Below, one piece after another: positions 1-9,837 of a stretch of 9,837 bases of DNA. Every line of letters begins with the position of its first letter. Position 1 is the first letter of the stretch. The DNA is from a virus. Its lineage: Duplodnaviria; Heunggongvirae; Uroviricota; Caudoviricetes. The position numbers and the translations under genes were made by a program. The notes under the pieces are model-generated. The model did not search any database and was not told the origin of the DNA. It worked only from the letters and a program-made list of their open reading frames with translations. The DNA lies in the IMG/VR virus record IMGVR_UViG_2711768014_000003, one strand, 5' to 3'.

Positions 1-186
1 GCTCGCCACGGGAATATCTACGGCAGCAAGCCAGTAATGGGTTAAGTGATAACAGGTGTCTGGAAATATAGGGGCAAATCCAGCGTTCATCAGCCCCCGC
101 ATTGCCGACAGGATCACAGACGGGGGGCGCAACTGGTTGTCGTTCAACTGGCCCAGCTACCGTTCTTGTATCAGAGGTGTGGCTGC

Positions 187-1578
187 ATGACAACACCAGT
201 CTGGCGTAATGATGACCTGGAAGGCGCTGTCATTGGCGCATTCTTTCTGCGTGGGGCAGATCATGAAGTGATGGATATTCTGATCACACTACCGGCGGAC
301 ATTTTTTCTGTACGAGCGTATCGGGATATCTACACAGGCATCTGCAGACAGGCCCGTGTTTCAGGAGTGATTGACCCCGTGCTGTTGTGTAATGAGATGC
401 CGGAACTTGCCCCGGTGATTACTGATACCGGGCGTAAAACCTGGGTGAAGTCTTCACTGGAGCACTATGTTGCAGCGTTGCGGCGCAATGCCGCACTGCG
501 CGATGCAGAAAAAACACTGAATGAGGCGCTGCAGAAATTACGTGATGCGCATACCTGTGAAGCAGCTGAAGATGCCCTGAAGGATGCGCAGAACATGATG
601 GTCACACTGTCGACAGGAAAGGGCGTCATTCAGCCGGTACATATTGATGATGTGCTTCCGGAAGTGGTTGAGCGTGTTGAATGCCGGAATCAGGGGCTGG
701 AGAAATCCAGGACGTTGATGACCGGTATTGATGAACTGGACGCAAAAACAGGCGGTATGGAGCCCGGAGACCTGGTATTCATTGCCGCCCGTCCTTCGAT
801 GGGGAAAACCGAACTTGCGCTGGACATCATCGACAAGGTGACTGAGCAGGGGCATGGTGTGCTTCTGTTCACCATGGAGATGGCGAACATCCAGATTGGT
901 GAACGTATGGTGTCTGCGGCTGGAGGGATGCCAGTATCACGCCTGAAATCTGTGGCTCACTTTGAAGATGAAGACTGGGCGCGTTTCTCACAAGGGGTGG
1001 GGCGGATGACCGGGCGCAATATCTGGATGGTGGACCAGGCGAACCTGACCATTGATGAGATATGCGCAACAACGAAACACCATCTGATTAAACATCCGGA
1101 AACGGCGCTGGTGGTGGTTGATTATCTCGGGCTGATAAAAACCCGAACCACGGGGCGTCATGACCTTGCCGTGGGTGAAATCTCAAAGGGGCTTAAAGGC
1201 CTGGCAAAATCCGGTGGTTTTCCGTTGATTGCGCTGAGCCAGCTCTCCCGCGGTGTGGAGTCCAGACCCAATAAACGTCCCATGAACTCAGACCTGAAAA
1301 ATTCCGGAGAAATAGAGGCGGATGCAGACATCATTCTGATGCTTTACAGGGATGAAGTGTACAACCCGGATACACAGGCTACAGGCATAGCAGAAATTAA
1401 TATCACGAAACAACGTAACGGTTCTCTGGGGACGATTTACCGGCGTTTTTATAACGGACATTTTCTGCCTGTGGACCAGGAAAGCGCACAGGTTCTTTCC
1501 ACCCCAATGCGGCAGCCCCAGCCGCGCAGATACAGCAATACACGTACCGACAGCAGTAAGATGGAGCGTTTCTTTTGA
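187..1578 (+). CDS. Replicative DNA helicase, DnaB-like (phage replication protein)
   Basis: ORF-track frame 46..1578. The N-terminal part (MTTPVWRNDDLEGAVIGAFF...) resembles the DnaB N-domain; the C-terminal part has a Walker A motif (AARPSMGKTELALD) and Walker B-like VVVDYLG. The start is placed at the first ATG (187), preceded by GAGGTG about 8 nt upstream; the 46..186 extension begins with GTG and does not look protein-like. Confidence 0.85.
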   Translation: MTTPVWRNDDLEGAVIGAFFLRGADHEVMDILITLPADIFSVRAYRDIYTGICRQARVSGVIDPVLLCNEMPELAPVITDTGRKTWVKSSLEHYVAALRRNAALRDAEKTLNEALQKLRDAHTCEAAEDALKDAQNMMVTLSTGKGVIQPVHIDDVLPEVVERVECRNQGLEKSRTLMTGIDELDAKTGGMEPGDLVFIAARPSMGKTELALDIIDKVTEQGHGVLLFTMEMANIQIGERMVSAAGGMPVSRLKSVAHFEDEDWARFSQGVGRMTGRNIWMVDQANLTIDEICATTKHHLIKHPETALVVVDYLGLIKTRTTGRHDLAVGEISKGLKGLAKSGGFPLIALSQLSRGVESRPNKRPMNSDLKNSGEIEADADIILMLYRDEVYNPDTQATGIAEINITKQRNGSLGTIYRRFYNGHFLPVDQESAQVLSTPMRQPQPRRYSNTRTDSSKMERFF

Positions 1579-1589
1579 ACAACCAGACA

Positions 1590-1832
1590 ATGACTTTTAC
1601 CTCTGAACAATTGCGTAAACACGCGCAGGAAATGTTGCGACAGGCGGAACAACTGGAAAAAACAGGTGTAACAAAAGATGCCATTCGTCGGGATATGGTG
1701 CCAGCGCTCAGGGAACTGATGCAGGCGAAACATCGCGCACAAAAAGCGGTGGATGAGCTCGTTGATTGTGTGGCAGAGCTGGAAACCAAAGTTGGAAAGT
1801 TTGAAAAAATGGTGCAGGAGGTGCTGCGCTGA
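1590..1832 (+). CDS. Hypothetical small protein, predicted helical/coiled-coil (nin-region-like position)
   Basis: ORF-track 1575..1832. TTG at 1575 overlaps the helicase stop; the first ATG is at 1590. Charged, Q/E/K-rich 80-aa product. I recognise no family. The stop overlaps the rusA start (TGATG). Confidence 0.5.
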   Translation: MTFTSEQLRKHAQEMLRQAEQLEKTGVTKDAIRRDMVPALRELMQAKHRAQKAVDELVDCVAELETKVGKFEKMVQEVLR

Positions 1833-2203
1833 TGCGCCATGAGTTTATTTTACCTTATCCGCCGACGGTGAATACTTACTGGCGACGTCGTGGCAGCACA
1901 TATTTTGTATCAAAAGTTGGTGAGCGTTATCGCCGTGATGTGACGCTAATTGTTCGCCAGCAGCGGCTGAAATTAAACCTGTCCGGAAGGCTGGCGATAA
2001 AGATTATTGCAGAGCCACCGGATAAGCGCCGTCGTGACCTGGACAATATCCTGAAAGCACCACTGGATGCGCTGACGCATGCCGGACTACTCATAGACGA
2101 CGAGCAGTTTGATGAAATCAATATTGTGCGCGGTCAGCTCGTTCCTGGTGGGCGACTGGGCGTGAAGATTTATGAAATCACAGGTGATAACGATGGCGCG
2201 TGA
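1832..2203 (+). CDS. rusA: Crossover junction endodeoxyribonuclease RusA (Holliday junction resolvase)
   Basis: The 123-aa translation ([12 protein letters not shown]...[31 protein letters not shown]...[11 protein letters not shown]) matches my recollection of RusA, including the acidic DLDN motif. Position downstream of replication genes and upstream of Q is typical for lambdoid phages. Confidence 0.85.
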
Positions 2204-2579
2204 TATTCAGCAGGTTATGGAACGGTGGGGGGCTTGGGCTGCAAACACTCATGAAGATGTATCCTGGGCGTCGATCGCTGCTGGTTTTAAAGGGTTAATT
2301 CCGTCGAAAGTGAAATCACGCCCTCAGTGTTCTGATGATGATGCAATGATAATTTGTGGCTGTATGGCCCGGTTGAACAAGAAAAATCAGGATTTGCACG
2401 ATTTGCTGGTGGATTATTACGTAGGTGGAATGACTTTTATGAGTCTGGCACGGAAACATGGGTGTTCGGATACCTGTATTGGCAAGCGCCTGCAGAAAGC
2501 GGAAGGGGTTATTGATGGCATGTTGATGATGCTTGATATCCGGCTGGAGATGGACAGATACGTAGAACGAATTATGTAG
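2193..2579 (+). CDS. Q: Late-gene antitermination protein Q (Q-family antiterminator)
   Basis: The translation ([23 protein letters not shown]...[20 protein letters not shown]...) matches my recollection of the Q antiterminators of Stx-phage and phage-21-type lambdoids, with Cys-rich putative zinc-binding residues. Start chosen at ATG 2193 (AGGTGA 7 nt upstream); an alternative in-frame ATG at 2172 overlaps rusA. A promoter-like element follows the stop immediately. Confidence 0.8.
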
Positions 2580-2583
2580 GTGC

Positions 2584-2613
2584 TTGACCAGACACATTGT
2601 CCGGGGCTATATT
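2584..2613 (+). promoter_or_regulatory. Candidate late promoter (pR'-like): TTGACC, 18-nt spacer, TATATT
   Basis: The -35 hexamer TTGACC (2584-2589) and -10 TATATT (2608-2613) start 5 nt after the Q stop codon, the canonical position of pR' in lambdoid phages. A hairpin (CGCCAG-N6-CTGGCG, 2621-2638) lies in the predicted initial transcript. Confidence 0.5.
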
Positions 2614-2674
2614 CCTCACGCGCCAGCAAAATCTGGCGTCGGGATTGGAACCCCGGATAGAGACCGCGACAGAC

Positions 2675-2698
2675 ACACGCCGCGAGCGTGTTTTTTAT
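2675..2698 (+). terminator. Intrinsic terminator (tR'-like) downstream of the candidate late promoter
   Basis: Stem ACACGC (2675-2680), loop CGCGA, stem GCGTGT (2686-2691), followed by a T-run (2691-2697). It would end a short (~75 nt) 6S-like leader RNA unless antiterminated by Q. Confidence 0.5.
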
Positions 2699-2824
2699 TG
2701 TCGTATGCACGCGCACATCTGAATTATGGTGGGGCGCATGGGGGAGCTGAAAAGCTCGCCGGTCGGTTTCCCGGTAGTTCCAACCCTGTGCGTCTCACCA
2801 CCCGATGATTGGAACCTGACGGTG

Positions 2825-2853
2825 TTGACAGTTTCAGGTTTGCAGTTTACATT
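2825..2853 (+). promoter_or_regulatory. Near-consensus sigma70 promoter (TTGACA, 17 nt, TACATT), likely for the ORF6N gene
   Basis: TTGACA at 2825-2830, exact 17-nt spacer, TACATT at 2848-2853. It is followed about 35 nt later by a weak hairpin (CCACA 2889-2893 / TGTGG 2905-2909) plus a T7 run (2910-2916), then about 145 nt of leader before the ORF6N start. Confidence 0.4.
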
Positions 2854-3059
2854 TCCCCGCGGTGCTCAAAACACCTCGAAAGCGGTATCCACACCCGATA
2901 GCCATGTGGTTTTTTTGTGTCCAGAATTCTTGGTTTATGACCGGGTGTGCGGCTAATACAATACCAGCAATGGAAATACGCCCGCCGACTTTCGACGGTT
3001 TTGAGCGCCCGGTCACCCTCTCAAAAGGGGTAAATCAAAATATTCGAAAGGACATGTCT

Positions 3060-3623
3060 ATGAATCGCACGTCTATTGAAAAACTCCCGTCACTTACGCA
3101 TAACCATCTTCCTGTCATGACAACAGAGCTGCTGGCTGATTTGTACGGAACAGAGCGCCAGCGTTTGACAAACAATTTCAATCGAAACAAAGAACGGTTT
3201 ATAGAAGGTAAACATTTTTTCCTGATAGAAGGTGATGCGTTACGAGAGTTGAAGAACGAAAACTCTTTAAGAGTTTCTGTGAAAATTGCCCGTAACGTTC
3301 GCTCCCTCATCCTCTGGACAGAACGTGGCGCAGCCCGTCACGCCAAAATGCTCGAAACCGATCAGGCGTGGGAAGTGTTCGAAAAACTGGAAGACTGTTA
3401 TTTCAACCAGAAACAGCCACCAGCGGCACAAAACACATCTATCGAAAATGATGGATGCGCATTACTGAGCCACTTCGATAAACACGGTCAGGTTGAGTTC
3501 ACGGAAAAGGTACCCGCCGATGCGATGGTATGTACTCTGGAACGGTTTAAATTTTATCTGGAGCAACACGGGTGGATCGTTGCCCGTAAAGAGCAACTGG
3601 TGGAGCGGTTGATGCGGTTTTAA
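3060..3623 (+). CDS. ORF6N-domain protein (KilA-N/antirepressor-like DNA-binding domain) with uncharacterised C-terminal domain
   Basis: ORF-track 2862..3623. The N-terminal region (HLPVMTTELLADLYGTERQRLTNNFNRNKERFIEGKHFFLIEGDALREL) fits the ORF6N consensus as I recall it (V..T..LA.LYG...R.L...RN..RF.EG..F.L). Start chosen at ATG 3060, with AAAGGA 7 nt upstream; the ATG at 3054 is in frame but too close to the SD. The upstream 64 codons of the ORF are probably untranslated. Confidence 0.7.
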   Translation: MNRTSIEKLPSLTHNHLPVMTTELLADLYGTERQRLTNNFNRNKERFIEGKHFFLIEGDALRELKNENSLRVSVKIARNVRSLILWTERGAARHAKMLETDQAWEVFEKLEDCYFNQKQPPAAQNTSIENDGCALLSHFDKHGQVEFTEKVPADAMVCTLERFKFYLEQHGWIVARKEQLVERLMRF

Positions 3624-3698
3624 AAATTTTTTCCGAAAACTTTACGATCGTAAAAAGTTGAATATCCTGTTAAGAGTGGTTACTACGCCACACAGCTT

Positions 3699-3726
3699 AA
3701 ACCCGCCGATGAGCGGGTTTTTTTAT
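3699..3726 (+). terminator. Intrinsic terminator after the ORF6N gene
   Basis: Stem AAACCCGC (3699-3706), loop CGATGA, stem GCGGGTTT (3713-3720), followed by TTTT (3721-3724). Confidence 0.6.
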
Positions 3727-3774
3727 ACCTGAAAAACGGCACAGGACGTTAAACGTGCTGGTGGTCAGATGAGT

Positions 3775-3803
3775 TTGCAGATGTGATGACATATGGTTAT
3801 TAT
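3775..3803 (+). promoter_or_regulatory. Candidate promoter for the tRNA array (TTGCAG, 17 nt, TATTAT)
   Basis: The -35-like TTGCAG (3775-3780) and -10-like TATTAT (3798-3803) sit about 10 nt upstream of the first tRNA 5' end (3813). Confidence 0.35.
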
Positions 3804-3812
3804 TCTGCCTCC

Positions 3813-3889
3813 GGCCCTTTAGCTCAGTTGGTCAGAGCGAGCGACTCATAATCGCCAGGTCGCTGGTTCAAGTCCAGCAAGGGCCACCA
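3813..3889 (+). tRNA. tRNA with anticodon CAT; sequence resembles E. coli ileX-type tRNA-Ile2 (lysidine, AUA-decoding), although the anticodon alone would read as Met
   Basis: Manual cloverleaf: acceptor GGCCCTT/AAGGGCC, D-arm GCTC...GAGC, anticodon loop CTCATAA (CAT at 3847-3849), T-arm GCTGG-TTCAAGT-CCAGC, discriminator A, encoded CCA. 77 nt. Confidence 0.85.
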
Positions 3890-3890
3890 A

Positions 3891-3967
3891 CCACCACTAG
3901 CTCATCCGGATAGAGCATCAACCTTCTAAGTTGACGGTGCGAGGTTCGAGTCCTCGGTGGTGGGCCA
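3891..3967 (+). tRNA. tRNA-Arg (anticodon TCT, decodes AGA/AGG)
   Basis: Manual fold: acceptor CCACCAC/GTGGTGG (unusual C1-G72), D-arm GCTC...GAGC, anticodon stem TCAAC/GTTGA with loop CTTCTAA (TCT at 3925-3927), T-arm CGAGG-TTCGAGT-CCTCG, discriminator G, encoded CCA. It starts 1 nt after the previous tRNA. Confidence 0.8.
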
Positions 3968-3969
3968 GC

Positions 3970-4045
<76 letters not shown>

Positions 4046-4048
4046 TAT

Positions 4049-4123
<75 letters not shown>

Positions 4124-4570
4124 GCGAGATTTGAGACGAAGGTTGTTATTTGCACTGACACAATATTGTGTGGGAATGTCTGACTCCTTACCATCTCCTG
4201 TTCTGTGATGTTGTTTTGTTGCAGTTCCAGTGCTCTTTTTTCAGCACCAGAATGGTGCATTGTCGGTCAGGTTACGTAGTGAACCTCTGGCAGGGGACTG
4301 ATGATTCATCATTCTGGTGTTGTAAATATCTCTTCGGACAACTTACAAAATATTCTAAGCAAACCCCGGGAACACACTCTTAACTGCCTTGGCTGGCGGT
4401 TTTTTGTACAGCGCTCGGTATGTGTGAGCTGGAAATCAGATTTTGCATGGACTGGAATCATGCTGTTATTTAGGGGCGAAGAACTGGCTTTTTCTTCCGC
4501 CTTCTCACCAGTAACGATTAGAAAAATAATGAAATGCCCCCCTCCGGGGAGGAGGACCGTAGAAAAAAGG

Positions 4571-4628
4571 ACCCGCCAGCAAAAACATTGGGGATGAACA
4601 GCTTTCGCTACTCAGATTGCTGGCGGGT
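4571..4628. repeat. 12-bp perfect inverted repeat (ACCCGCCAGCAA, 34-nt spacer, TTGCTGGCGGGT)
   Basis: Arms at 4571-4582 and 4617-4628 are exact reverse complements. On the minus strand the structure is followed by CCTTTTTTCT (complement of 4561-4570), so it could act as a minus-strand terminator or a structured RNA/protein-binding element. Confidence 0.5.
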
Positions 4629-4736
4629 AAAGTTCCTCATGAATTAAGAATGCTACGCGATCTTTTTTAATGGAAATGAAAATTATTGTCAATTAGTCGT
4701 GCGTGTTTTTTCATACAATATTGGTAAAGGTGATTC

Positions 4737-4769
4737 AGGCCATCAGAGTTTTGCTGATGGCCTTTTTTC
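4737..4769 (+). terminator. Strong intrinsic terminator about 35 bp upstream of the holin gene
   Basis: Perfect 10-bp stem AGGCCATCAG (4737-4746) / CTGATGGCCT (4754-4763), 7-nt loop, followed by TTTTTT (4763-4768). Confidence 0.6.
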
Positions 4770-4803
4770 TTTCCGATAGCACAGGTCTGTCGGGGGGCGG
4801 GAT

Positions 4804-5019
4804 ATGTATCAGATGGAAAAAATATCAACAGGCATTGCCTACGGCACCTCCGCCGGCAGTGCCGGCTACTGGTTTTTGCAGTGGTTGGATCAGGTCAGTC
4901 CATCACAGTGGGCTGCGATTGGTGTGCTGGGAAGTCTGCTTCTGGGGCTTCTGACTTATCTGACAAATCTGTATTTCAAAATAAGAGAAGACAAGCGTAA
5001 GGCTGCGAGAGGTGAATAA
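4804..5019 (+). CDS. S: Class II holin, phage 21 S-type pinholin with dual-start motif
   Basis: The 71-aa product ([71 protein letters not shown]) is near-identical to my recollection of phage 21 S21: two TM segments, charged C-terminus, Met1/Met4 dual start (alternative start 4813). The stop overlaps the endolysin start (TAATG). Confidence 0.9.
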
Positions 5020-5166
5020 TGTCGCCATCATTACGCAAGGCTGTTGCAGCTGCTATTGGTGGTGGGGCTGTTGCTATAGCATCTGTGTTAATCACTGGCC
5101 CAGGTGGTAACGATGGTCTGGAAGGTGTCAGCTACATACCATACAAAGATATCATTGGTGTATGGA
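5019..5166 (+). CDS. R: SAR endolysin (R21-type lysozyme), 5' part only; 3' part lost in the N run
   Basis: The N-terminus ([52 protein letters not shown]) matches the signal-anchor-release domain of phage 21 R as I recall it. The ORF runs into the Ns at 5167, so the catalytic domain is not visible. Confidence 0.85.
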
Positions 5167-5483
5167 CTGTATGTCANNNNNNNNNNNNNNNNNNNNNNNN
5201 NNNNNNNNNNNNNNNNNNNNNNNNNNNNNNNNNNNNNNNNNNNNNNNNNNNNNNNNNNNNNNNNNNNNNNNNNNNNNNNNNNNNNNNNNNNNNNNNNNNN
5301 NNNNNNNNNNNNNNNNNNNNNNNNNNNNNNNNNNNNNNNNNNNNNNNNNNNNNNNNNNNNNNNNNNNNNNNNNNNNNNNNNNNNNNNNNNNNNNNNNNNN
5401 NNNNNNNNNNNNNNNNNNNNNNNNNNNNNNNNNNNNNNNNNNNNNNNNNNNNNNNNNNNNNNNNNNNNNNNNNNNNNNNNNNN
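5167..5483. other. Run of 317 N (assembly gap or masked sequence)
   Basis: Directly visible. It interrupts the endolysin 3' region and the 5' regions of Rz and Rz1. The apparent in-frame continuity across the Ns in the ORF track is an artefact. Confidence 0.99.
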
Positions 5484-5660
5484 GCAGTCTGTCAGTCAGT
5501 GCGTGAAGCCACCACCGCCTCCGGCGTGGATAATGCAACCAGCCCCCGACTGGCAGACACCGCTGAACGGGATTATTTCACCCTCAGAGAGCGGCTGATG
5601 ACGATGCAGATGCAACTGGAAGGGGCACAGGAGTATATCCGCACTCAGTGCATTAAGTAG
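5484..5660 (+). CDS. Rz: Rz i-spanin, C-terminal part only (5' end in gap)
   Basis: The translation after the gap (AVCQSVREATTASGVDNATSPRLADTAERDYFTLRERLMTMQMQLEGAQEYIRTQCIK) closely matches my recollection of the lambda Rz C-terminus. Stop at 5658-5660. Confidence 0.85.
   Translation, partial: AVCQSVREATTASGVDNATSPRLADTAERDYFTLRERLMTMQMQLEGAQEYIRTQCIK
5485..5598 (+). CDS. Rz1: Rz1 o-spanin, C-terminal part only, embedded in the +1 frame of Rz (5' end in gap)
   Basis: The +1 frame after the gap gives QSVSQCVKPPPPPAWIMQPAPDWQTPLNGIISPSESG, matching the proline-rich lambda Rz1 C-terminus as I recall it. The lipobox and start lie in the N run. Confidence 0.8.
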   Translation, partial: QSVSQCVKPPPPPAWIMQPAPDWQTPLNGIISPSESG

Positions 5661-5702
5661 CCTTTTTATCGTGGTAAACATTTCGCAGGGTATGAGGTAT
5701 TT

Positions 5703-6053
5703 ATGCCATCACTAATCCCACGTGCCTGCCGTAAGCGTGGATGTGCAGGTACAACCACAGACAGTTCGGGTTACTGCGATAAACATCGCGGTGAAGGCTG
5801 GGTGCAGCACCAGCGCGGACTGAGCCGCCACCAGCGTGGCTATGGCTCAAAATGGACGGTGATTCGTGCCCGTATTCTGAAGCGCGATAAAGGTCTGTGT
5901 CAGTTGTGTCTGCGTGTCGGTGTGGTGAGCGAGGCGAAAACCGTCGACCACATCATCCCGAAAGCGCATGGCGGAACAGACGCAGACAGCAACCTGCAGA
6001 GTCTGTGCTGGCCCTGCCATAAAGCGAAAACAGCGCGCGAACGAATCCGGTGA
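5703..6053 (+). CDS. HNH endonuclease (phage packaging-associated HNH)
   Basis: The 116-aa product has paired Cys motifs (C..C...C..H and CQLC...CWPCH) and an HNH core (DHIIPKAHGG...N). ATG at 5703 with GAGGT 5 nt upstream. It sits immediately upstream of the terminase small subunit, the arrangement known from HK97-like cos phages. Confidence 0.85.
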   Translation: MPSLIPRACRKRGCAGTTTDSSGYCDKHRGEGWVQHQRGLSRHQRGYGSKWTVIRARILKRDKGLCQLCLRVGVVSEAKTVDHIIPKAHGGTDADSNLQSLCWPCHKAKTARERIR

Positions 6054-6075
6054 TAATTATTCTCACTTGTAGGGA

Positions 6076-6136
6076 GGGGCGGGGCAAATCCCTGTGACCT
6101 GACGTCTTCCGGACTGCCCGCCCCATCGTTTTTTTA
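6076..6136 (+). promoter_or_regulatory. GC-rich dyad element with T-run between the HNH and terS genes; candidate cos region and/or terminator
   Basis: GGGGCGGG (6076-6083) pairs with CCCGCCCC (6117-6124) across a ~33-nt spacer, followed by a T-run (6129-6136). It lies in the 121-bp intergenic region where HK97-like phages place cos. Confidence 0.3.
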
Positions 6137-6174
6137 TACCCGCGAAAAATGAAATTTAACCAGGAGTGCCGCAT

Positions 6175-6669
6175 ATGGCTGGAACGGCGGGGCGTTCCGG
6201 GCGTCGCCCCAAGCCAACGGCGCGCAAGGCGCTGGCCGGAAACCCCGGCAAGCGAGCCCTGAACAAAGATGAACCTGTTTTTACGCCCATCAAAGGTGTT
6301 GAGCCACCAGAGTGGTTCGCTGAAGAAGATCTCCCTCTCGCCACGATCATGTGGCAACTGACAACCAAAGAACTCTGCGGTCAGGGCCTGCTGTGCGTGA
6401 CTGACCTGGCGGTACTTGAGCGGTGGTGCGTGGCCTATGAGTTCTGGCGACGTGCCGTGAAAAATATTGCCATACAGGGCAACACCATCACCGGTGCAAT
6501 GGGCGGCAGGGTCAAAAATCCGGAGCTGACCGCCAAAAAAGAACAGGAGTCCGAGATGAGCAGCACGGGGGCAATGCTCGGACTCGACCCCAGCAGCCGC
6601 CAGCGTCTGATTGGCCTGGCGGGGCAGAAGAAAGCCACTAACCCGTTTCTGAAAATTATCGAATCATGA
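6175..6669 (+). CDS. Terminase small subunit (P27-family-like)
   Basis: ORF-track 6166..6669. ATG at 6175 with CAGGAG 8 nt upstream. Basic N-terminus ([27 protein letters not shown]) and overall resemblance to the P27-family small terminases as I recall them. The stop overlaps the terL start (ATGA). Confidence 0.75.
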
Positions 6670-8399
6670 GCCGGAAATCTTACCCCAACGTAAATGCTGC
6701 AAATCAGTATGCCCGGGATGTCGTGCGCGGAAAGATTGTTGCCTGCCAGTTTGTGATTCAGGCCTGCCAGCGCCATCTTGATGACCTGATGGCGGAAAAA
6801 AGTAAGTCGTTTCGTTACCGCTTCGACAAGGACCTGGCTGAACGGGCCGCGAAATTTATTCAGCTGTTGCCGCACACCAAGGGGGAGTGGGCATTCAAAC
6901 GGATGCCCATCACGCTGGAGCCGTGGCAGCTATTTGTGATCTGCTGTGCGTTTGGCTGGGTCAATAAAGGCACCCGGTTGCGCCGCTTCCGGGAGGTGTA
7001 CACCGAAATCCCCCGTAAGAACGGCAAATCAGCAATCTCTGCCGGTGTTGCCCTGTATTGTTTTGCCTGTGATAACGAGTTTGGCGCGGAAGTGTATTCC
7101 GGTGCCACGACAGAGAAACAGGCGTGGGAAGTCTTTCGCCCGGCGCGACTGATGTGTAAACGCACACCCATGCTGACGGAAGCGTTCGGGATTGAGGTTA
7201 ACGCCTCAAACATGAACCGTCCGGAGGATGGCGCGCGGTTTGAACCGCTGATCGGCAACCCAGGTGATGGTTCATCACCCCACTGTGCCGTGGTTGATGA
7301 ATATCACGAGCATGCCACCGATGCGCTTTATACCACAATGCTTACCGGGATGGGGGCGCGACGTCAGCCACTGATGTGGGCCATCACCACCGCCGGGTAC
7401 AACATTGAGGGGCCGTGCTACGACAAGCGGCGGGAAGTCATCGAGATGCTCAACGGCTCGGTGCCTAACGATGAACTGTTCGGGATCATCTATACCGTTG
7501 ATGAAGGTGACGACTGGACCGGCCCGCAGGTGCTGGAAAAAGCCAATCCAAATATTGGCGTGTCGGTTTATCGCGAATTTTTGTTAAGTCAGCAGCAGCG
7601 TGCGAAAAATAACGCCCGTCTGGCAAACGTCTTTAAAACAAAACACCTCAATATCTGGGTGTCGGCGCGTTCGGCGTATTTCAACTTGGTGAGCTGGCAG
7701 AGCTGCGAGGATAAATCACTGACCCTTGAGCAGTTCGAGGGGCAGCCGTGCATTCTGGCCTTTGACCTGGCGCGTAAGCTGGATATGAACAGCATGGCGC
7801 GACTTTATACCCGCGAGATTGACGGTAAAACGCATTACTACAGTGTGGCCCCGCGTTTCTGGGTACCGTATGACACGGTGTACAGCGTCGAGAAAAATGA
7901 AGATCGACGGACAGCCGAACGCTTTCAGAAATGGGTGGAAATGGGCGTTCTGACCGTTACCGATGGTGCGGAGGTGGATTATCGCTACATCCTCGAGGAG
8001 GCCAAAGCGGCGAACAAAATCAGCCCGGTCAGTGAGTCACCCATCGACCCCTTCGGGGCGACCGGGTTGTCACATGACCTTGCTGATGAAGACCTGAATC
8101 CCGTCACTATCGTCCAGAACTTCACCAATATGTCCGATCCGATGAAAGAGCTGGAAGCAGCGATTGAATCGGGACGTTTTCATCATGACGGCAATCCCAT
8201 CATGACCTGGTGTATCGGCAACGTGGTCGGCAAAAACATGCCGGGTAACGATGATGTGGTGAAACCCGTCAAAGAGCAGGCGGAAAACAAAATCGATGGT
8301 GCAGTTGCGCTGATTATGGCGGTTGGCAGAGCCATGCTGTACGAGAAAGAAGACACGCTGTCTGACCACATTGAGTCCTACGGGATCCGCTCGCTTTAA
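6666..8399 (+). CDS. Terminase large subunit (ATPase plus nuclease)
   Basis: 577-aa product with a P-loop-like motif ([14 protein letters not shown]) and Walker B-like VVDEYHE. Length and position (after terS, before portal) are typical of Terminase_1-type large subunits. Confidence 0.9.
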
Positions 8400-8410
8400 C
8401 TGAGGTAATT

Positions 8411-8593
8411 ATGATCATGCTGATTCTCGCGCCTCTGGTGGGCGTGCTGGGTGCGCTTTTGCTGGCGTATGGTGCCTGGCTGATTTATCCCCCGGCGGGT
8501 TTTGTTGTTGCCGGGGCGCTGTGCCTGTTCTGGTCGTGGCTGGTGGCGCGATATCTCGACCGTACACGGCAGTCTGTCGGCGGAGGTAAATAG
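8411..8593 (+). CDS. Small hydrophobic membrane protein (two predicted TM helices), function unknown
   Basis: The 60-aa product ([60 protein letters not shown]) has GAGGT 5 nt upstream of ATG 8411. Its TAG stop overlaps a GTG (TAGTG) that is preceded by GGAGG. Confidence 0.5.
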
Positions 8594-9749
8594 TGTTCTT
8601 TTCGGGATTATTTCAACGAAAAAGCGATGTGCCGGTGACCACGCCAGCAGAACTGCTGATGCTATCGGGCTGTCATACGACACCTATACCGGAAAGCGGA
8701 TCAGTAGCCAGCGGGCCATGCGCCTGACGGCGGTCTATTCTTGCGTCAGGGTGCTGGCAGAGTCTGTTGGTATGCTGCCCTGCAGTCTCTACAAAATCAG
8801 CGGTACCCTGAAAACACGGGCGGTGGATGAACGACTGCATAAGTTGGTTTCGGCAAAACCTAATGGCTACATGACACCGCAGGAATTCTGGGAGCTGGTT
8901 ATTGTCTGCCTGTGTCTACGGGGGAATTTTTACGCCTACAAGGTAAAGGCACTGGGAGAAGTGGTGGAGCTTCTTCCGATAGATCCGGGCTGTGTGGAAC
9001 CGAAGCTGAACAGCCAGTGGCAGCCGGTTTATCAGGTGACGTTTCCGGATGGTTCCGTGGATGTGTTGACCCAGAATGAAATCTGGCATGTGCGCACCCT
9101 GACGCTGGATGGACTTGTCGGGCTGAATCCCATTGCGTATGCGCGTGAGGCCATTTCACTGGCAGCGGCAACCGAGGAGCACGGTGCCAGGTTGTTTAGT
9201 AATGGTGCGGTGACATCCGGTGTGTTGCGTACGGAACAAAAGCTCACGCCGGATGCTTACGAGCGTCTGAAGAAAGATTTTGAGGAGTGTCACACGGGGC
9301 TTGGCAATGCTCACCGCCCGATGATTCTGGAAATGGGGCTGGACTGGAAGTCGATGGCGCTGAACGCCGAGGACAGTCAGTTCCTGGAAACCCGCAAGTT
9401 TCAGCTGGAAGAAATCTGTCGTCTGTTCCGGGTGCCGTTGCACATGGTGCAGAACACCGATCGCGCCACCTTCAACAATATCGAAGAGCTGGGGCTGGGA
9501 TTTATCAACTATTCACTGGTGCCGTATCTGACCCGCATCGAACAGCGGATCAACACCGGACTGGTACGAAAAAGTAAGCAGGGCGTTTATTACGCCAAAT
9601 TTAACGCCGGGGCGTTACTGCGCGGGGATATGAAGTCCCGTTTTGAAGCCTACGCCACCGGGATCAACTGGGGAATTTACTCTTCCAATGACTGCCGCGA
9701 CCTGGAAGATATGAATCCGCGTCCCGGTGGTGTAATGCCGATCAGTTAA
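8593..9749 (+). CDS. Portal protein, HK97-family-like; reading frame apparently disrupted near the 5' end (frameshift, pseudogene or sequencing error)
   Basis: The body (frame of ORF-track 8502..9749) carries portal-like motifs (RAMRLTAVYSCVRVLAESVGMLP...). That frame has no in-frame ATG or GTG before 8718. An RBS-backed GTG at 8593 (GGAGG 6 nt upstream, coupled to the upstream stop) opens a different frame encoding MFFSGLFQRKSDVPVTTPAELLMLSG..., which stops at 8725-8727. Confidence 0.7.
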
Positions 9750-9782
9750 GGATCAGTTGACCGATCCAGTGGCTGTGTAAGA

Positions 9783-9817
9783 ATCCGGAAACGCTCACTT
9801 GTTTCCGGATTTTTTTA
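9783..9817 (+). terminator. Intrinsic terminator downstream of the portal gene
   Basis: Perfect 10-bp stem ATCCGGAAAC (9783-9792) / GTTTCCGGAT (9801-9810), 8-nt loop, followed by TTTTTTT (9811-9817). Confidence 0.7.
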
Positions 9818-9837
9818 TGCACATTGGACAGGCTCTT

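Follow-up and report, generated by a model that had tools for sequence, protein, structure and literature searches.

A run of 307 Ns in a phage-21-type lysis cassette: probably an assembly gap over an ordinary 624-bp interval

The locus raises the question of what a run of Ns in the lysis cassette of a lambdoid prophage stands for, how much sequence it replaces and whether it has any biological meaning. The window, i.e., the whole stretch of 9,837 nt that was analyzed, contains a single such run, which according to the N count of the whole window comprises 307 N from position 5177 to 5483. An earlier note on this DNA had reported 317 N at 5167-5483; the run exists and its end was placed correctly, but its start and the count were off by 10. 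Comparison with related sequences indicates, with a probability which we put at roughly 85%, that a draft, scaffolded assembly was left with a gap here, most likely of an ordinary 624 bp, and that the run does not represent a biological feature. The finding is an assembly artefact over known, well-characterised biology.

The gap is located in a lambdoid prophage with the gene order DnaB-like helicase, RusA, Q, four tRNAs, pinholin, SAR endolysin, Rz/Rz1, HNH, P27-type TerS, TerL and portal. The coordinates of the features around the gap are given in Table 1. The CAT tRNA, one of the four tRNAs, was called Met by ARAGORN; the tRNA-Ile which RefSeq gives as the first gene of the corresponding cluster of a related prophage (L001) may be its homologue.

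Table 1. Features of the window in and around the N run (window coordinates)
Feature	Position	Strand	Remarks
Four tRNA genes, anticodons CAT, TCT, TGT, TCC	3813-4123		between the ORF6N-domain gene and the lysis cassette
Class II holin, phage-21 S-type pinholin, 71 aa	4804..5019	+	PF04971, E=1.5e-35; 65/71 identical to phage 21 S
SAR endolysin R, 5' part, codons 1-52 + 2 nt	5019..5176	+	ATG at 5019; Gly/Ala-rich SAR domain, catalytic triad
Artefactual 213-aa ORF, R head + Rz tail via 102 X codons	5019..5660	+	ORF list, translation
N run, probable assembly-scaffold gap	5177..5483	no strand	replaces 624 bp of identical relatives: R codons 53-165, Rz codons 1-96, Rz1 codons 1-23
i-spanin Rz, 3' part, last 58 codons + stop	5484..5660	+	PF03245 positions 69-125, E=8.5e-22
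o-spanin Rz1, 3' part, last 37 codons + stop, +1 frame of Rz	5485..5598	+	PF06085, E=6.8e-19
HNH endonuclease (PF01844), P27-family small terminase (PF05119), large terminase, portal	5703-9749		directly after Rz/Rz1

Length and content of the interval in relatives

The 29-mer adjoining the gap on the left was used as query and returned 27 IMG/VR loci, none of which has a long N run. In the genome-contig and metagenome-contig collections the same 29-mer gave 0 matches. Three IMG/VR loci, which belong to three different genome ids, are 100% identical to both flanks of the gap over 5,159 + 4,343 nt (L012), 261 + 4,354 nt (L021) and 5,176 + 4,266 nt (L024), respectively. Between these flanks each of them has 624 bp without any N, and all three fills are identical. 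In addition, the 4.79-Mb NCBI replicon CP045524.1 (L033) was reached by an exact look-up of the holin protein and is, among the matches listed, 100% identical to the flanks and the fill over 3,216 nt.

The earlier note had held that the N count was too short for the missing content and had proposed to compare the gap span with homologous lysis cassettes. This comparison, made on the 54 fetched loci in which one alignment runs across both gap edges, agrees with the claim, as the interval is 624 bp in the flank-identical sequences and also in 48 of the 54 loci, and ranges from 603 to 627 bp against 307 N in the window, with no locus near 307. In phage 21 the homologous anchor points are about 621-624 bp apart. 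The guess that "roughly 600 bp or more" would be hidden was therefore close to the 624 bp found in the 100%-identical relatives. Since these relatives have 624 bp, the 307 N would understate the gap by about 317 bp, and the N count is not usable as a distance. The content of the 624 bp can be read in the relatives and is most likely the same in the source strain. For the following analysis the locus was reconstructed from window 1-5176, the 624 bp of L012 (L012:5160-5783) and window 5484-9837, so that the gap covers 5177-5800 in reconstructed coordinates.

The number 307 itself fits neither of two familiar kinds of N run. By GenBank practice a fixed 100 N are used for gaps of "unknown length", and 307 N differ from this conventional size. 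A gap or mask that is true to length would have to agree with the 624 bp of the flank-identical sequences and the 603-627 bp of the 54 loci, all of which are relatives of the source strain. The idea that the count is an unmeasured placeholder thus holds in so far as 307 is not a measured length, but 307 is no conventional fixed size either. A poor estimate of the paired-read distance by the scaffolder is at least as likely as a placeholder. A numerical origin of 307 was sought but no explanation was found, the number being neither a conventional placeholder nor near 624.

No insertion, moron or mobile element was found in the 624-bp fill of the 100%-identical relatives (L012, L021, L024 and L033). 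It had been suggested that the gap could hide a moron or a mobile element. This idea was reasonable because one relative, L026, carries an IS in R; L026 is less similar, however, and such an element is absent from every 100%-identical relative.

The lysis genes on both sides of the gap

The holin upstream of the gap matches PF04971 with 121 bits, against a Pfam cut-off of 26, and has kept the dual starts Met1/Met4 of an S21-type class II holin. Its stop overlaps the start of R at 5019. Whereas S of phage 21 starts with MKSM, the holin of the window starts with MYQM (4804-4815) and is thus without Lys2, to which the S21-71 antiholin owes its additional positive charge. The MYQM variant is very common and was seen in 4,969 blocks of the public assembly collection.

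The visible part of R had been given as about 49 codons, which is too few, as 52 codons and 2 nt precede the gap when counted from the ATG at 5019. Criteria for SAR domains have been described (PMC9239132), and the visible residues 8-27 form a weakly hydrophobic, Gly/Ala-rich stretch which is nearly identical to R21. The motif E-X8-D-X5-T is the canonical lysozyme catalytic motif (PMC9239132) and is listed for the phage 21 endolysin (PMC4640515). In the window the triad is present as E35 (5121-5123), D44 (5148-5150) and T50 (5166-5168), all upstream of the gap. The gap had been thought to remove the catalytic part of the endolysin; the triad is visible at 5121-5168, but residues 53-165 with the rest of the fold are indeed hidden. 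This hidden share amounts to the remaining two-thirds of R and to about 104 of the 123 residues of the PF00959 match, and the 52-aa head alone gave no Pfam match. When the fill supplies codons 53-165, the reconstructed R has 165 aa and matches PF00959 over residues 34-156 with 154.5 bits, above the Pfam cut-off. It aligns over all 165 residues with PDB 4zpu (RrrD, E=1.6e-109) and likewise end to end with 3hde (R21), at an E-value of about 1e-109. The R stop overlaps the Rz start (ATGA).

Downstream of the gap the last 58 Rz codons and the last 37 Rz1 codons had been recognized correctly, and their ends at 5660 and 5598 were confirmed. The visible spanin tails match PF03245 with 78 bits and PF06085 with 68 bits and stand in the right frames relative to each other. 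The gap covers the spanin TMD, the lipobox VVGC (Cys20) and the start codons of both genes, which are seen only in the identical relatives. With codons 1-96 from the fill, the reconstructed Rz has 154 aa, an N-terminal TMD and a PF03245 match of 176.7 bits, above the cut-off. The reconstructed Rz1, for which the fill gives codons 1-23, is a 60-aa protein in the +1 frame of Rz with the lipobox VVGC at Cys20 and a proline-rich stretch, and it matches PF06085 with 71.1 bits, again above the Pfam cut-off.

Four listed ORFs cross the Ns (5019-5660, 5104-5598, 5162-5506 and, on the minus strand, 5152-5538). As the earlier note had warned, any such ORF is an artefact. In the real sequence the frames of R and Rz differ. 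The false R-Rz fusion ORF arises because the shortfall of 317 leaves a remainder of 2 when divided by 3, which brings the R and Rz frames together. The 213-aa product was not on record in the protein look-up. Neither this ORF at 5019-5660 nor the other N-crossing ORFs must be annotated.

Several side observations concern IS elements and altered cassettes. The first 71-82 bp of the window are the end of an IS3-family element. L024, a 100%-identical contig, has a transposase orfA/orfB (HTH_Tnp_1 + rve; L024:3379-4652) that stops at window position 71, and window 1-82 shows 92.7% identity with the end of the insertion, 1,331 bp long, that L009 and L013 carry. Draft contigs often begin inside IS elements. 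The 510-aa DnaB-like ORF (46-1578) starts within the IS junction, so that its true 5' end may have been altered by the IS. In L009 (3195-4525) and L013 the 1,331-bp element is located at window 4997-5001 with a 5-bp overlap, which suggests a target duplication. Other IS insertions of close relatives are found at window 4794-4797 and 5089/5090. Taken together, the IS insertions in the cassettes of relatives point to IS-rich, Shigella-like hosts and decaying prophages. In L039:580-1545 (NGVZ01000114.1) an extra G is present in the G-run before the R stop (reconstructed 5510), giving an R-Rz fusion ORF of 321 aa that matches both PF00959 and PF03245; the extra G is a sequencing error in the homopolymer or else a genuine frameshift.

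Origin of the gap

Repeat collapse is the likely cause of the gap. The R-Rz stretch would be a near-identical repeat common to co-resident lambdoid prophages, which the assembler was presumably unable to place uniquely, and the scaffolder would then have joined the unique sequence on either side across a distance that it estimated poorly. In complete E. coli genomes the median number of places with the 624 bp is 2 per genome and the maximum 10, with 7 in FDAARGOS_944, and five IMG genomes have the left-flank 29-mer on two or three different viral contigs each. In the E. coli strains FDAARGOS_944 and RMDEC465 the best left-flank and the best right-flank matches lie in different prophages. The mismatch map of the L002/L030-type prophages from these two strains shows many differences up to 5174, followed by about 880 identical bp, which cover the whole gap with R, Rz and the start of HNH. 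Prophages of the L001 type behave the other way round: they are 99.3% identical on the left, identical at 5238-5680 and lose homology at 5760 (reconstructed coordinates). Judged from these alignments, the prophage is a mosaic, and the junction at 5174/5175 is consistent with a recombination event within the endolysin gene, which is conserved. The left gap edge (5176/5177) lies 2 nt past the last base that distinguishes the L002/L030 type, i.e., at a repeat boundary, and an assembler that breaks at repeat boundaries would therefore stop there. In the mismatch maps the right gap edge is without an equally sharp boundary.

Contig ends of other drafts were also considered. Some are found in or near the interval, as in L040 (5316), L007 (5314) and L077 (5175, all in reconstructed coordinates). 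When only true ends were counted, many loci being chunks of longer contigs, 15 of 138 contigs ended inside the 1.4-kb cassette and 7 of them inside the interval. These counts are roughly at chance level for contigs of 4-20 kb which were picked by the cassette pattern, and therefore they were not used as evidence for a hotspot. As a separate observation, the IMG/VR locus L005 (L005:851) is 100% identical to window 3713-5176 and on to reconstructed 5226, and then has a single N and a second copy of 4258-4797. This suggests a further draft that was mis-joined or scaffolded at the lysis cassette.

It is unlikely that the source strain differs inside the gap from its 100%-identical relatives, be it by an IS or moron in R or Rz or by a deletion that fuses R and Rz. 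If this were true, the gap would conceal a lysis cassette that this particular strain has inactivated or remodelled, although even then the interest would be low. An IS sitting in the interval, whether or not cassette sequence was lost with it, could have broken the assembly as a multi-copy element, and relatives offer examples: in L026 codon 59 of R is followed directly by an IS3-family orfA (reconstructed 5195, 19 bp into the interval; L026:1-541), L009 and L013 have the 1,331-bp insertion in the cassette, L008 and L011 carry others, and the window start is itself inside an IS3-family element. However, L026 is only 97.5-99.7% identical to the left flank, whereas L012, L021, L024 and L033, 100% identical on both flanks, have no insertion. 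Moreover, a simple insertion leaves contigs which abut at one position of the cassette, yet here 624 bp are missing, and we regard an IS as quite improbable. For the deletion to apply, 307 bp would have to be about right, and a loss of some 317 bp would have ruined R and Rz, or fused them, in a prophage undergoing decay. At a length of 307 the start of R does read in frame into the end of Rz, and degraded cassettes do occur in relatives, as in L039, where the additional G fuses R and Rz, and in L035, where Rz runs into an IS. Such a frame match, however, has a chance of 1 in 3, none of the 54 spanning loci is near 307 (603-627 bp), intact prophages share the flanks at 100% identity over 9.5 kb, and a deletion gives no reason why the bases should be unknown, all of which makes it very unlikely.

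The two remaining explanations concern the way in which the record was made. A chimeric scaffold could have joined left and right contigs from two prophages that share the R-Rz repeat, as might be suspected from the separate best matches of the two flanks in FDAARGOS_944 and RMDEC465 and from the fact that, in the collection, not one complete E. coli genome has a single place matching 80% or more of the 2.1-kb query. The same left-right join is nevertheless contiguous, free of N and 100% identical in L012, L021, L024 and CP045524.1, which renders a chimera highly improbable. Hardly more can be said for a mask of arbitrary length which a data provider or pipeline laid over known sequence. One sequence collection is described as having a few stretches masked as N runs, and none of the collections searched yielded the window's own record, but here the length was not preserved (307 vs 624), and the hidden sequence is openly present in other collections, so that there is no evident reason for masking it. 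A scaffold gap over the ordinary R-Rz interval thus remains the preferred reading.

Comparison with known systems

The flanking genes had been described as those of a phage-21-type SAR endolysin with Rz/Rz1, and the Pfam matches, PDB 4zpu/3hde and the 88-96% amino acid identity to phage 21 uphold this. The lysis mechanism of pinholins, SAR endolysins and spanins is well established. By analogy, the cassette is expected to work as in phage 21: the pinholin would depolarise the inner membrane, the membrane-tethered SAR endolysin would then be released and refold to the active muramidase, and the Rz/Rz1 spanin complex would disrupt the outer membrane. To score the prophage as lysis-defective is not warranted from this window.

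The lambdoid coliphage 21 (GenBank OL657228.1) shares the gene order and the overlaps (R stop with Rz start, Rz1 in the +1 frame of Rz) as well as the same Pfam families in the lysis cassette. After reconstruction the amino acid identities are 65/71 for S, 158/165 for R, 135/154 for Rz and 55/60 for Rz1. As a difference, 307 N stand in the window itself for 624 bp of the cassette. Furthermore, phage 21 has bor downstream, whereas the window has an HNH endonuclease followed by a P27-type TerS, an HNH-terminase arrangement that is typical for HK97-like packaging modules. The cassette also resembles RrrD/RzpD/RzoD of the DLP12-type defective prophage of E. coli K-12, as the reconstructed R aligns end to end with RrrD (4zpu), and rrrD, rzpD and rzoD are the RefSeq names for the homologous genes in E. 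coli genomes. Here the differences are the flanking prophage modules and R, which in the window is readable for 52 codons only.

With respect to the N run itself, the closest comparison is with repeat-induced scaffold gaps in draft bacterial assemblies. As in these, the missing stretch is multi-copy within genomes, a gap edge coincides with a repeat boundary and the window starts inside an IS; moreover, in 2,889 of the 4,969 blocks with the holin the longest contig copy measures 5-10 kb. What differs is that the N count is here about half of the true span and departs from the fixed 100-N convention. The case shows how near-identical lysis modules of co-resident lambdoid prophages break draft assemblies.
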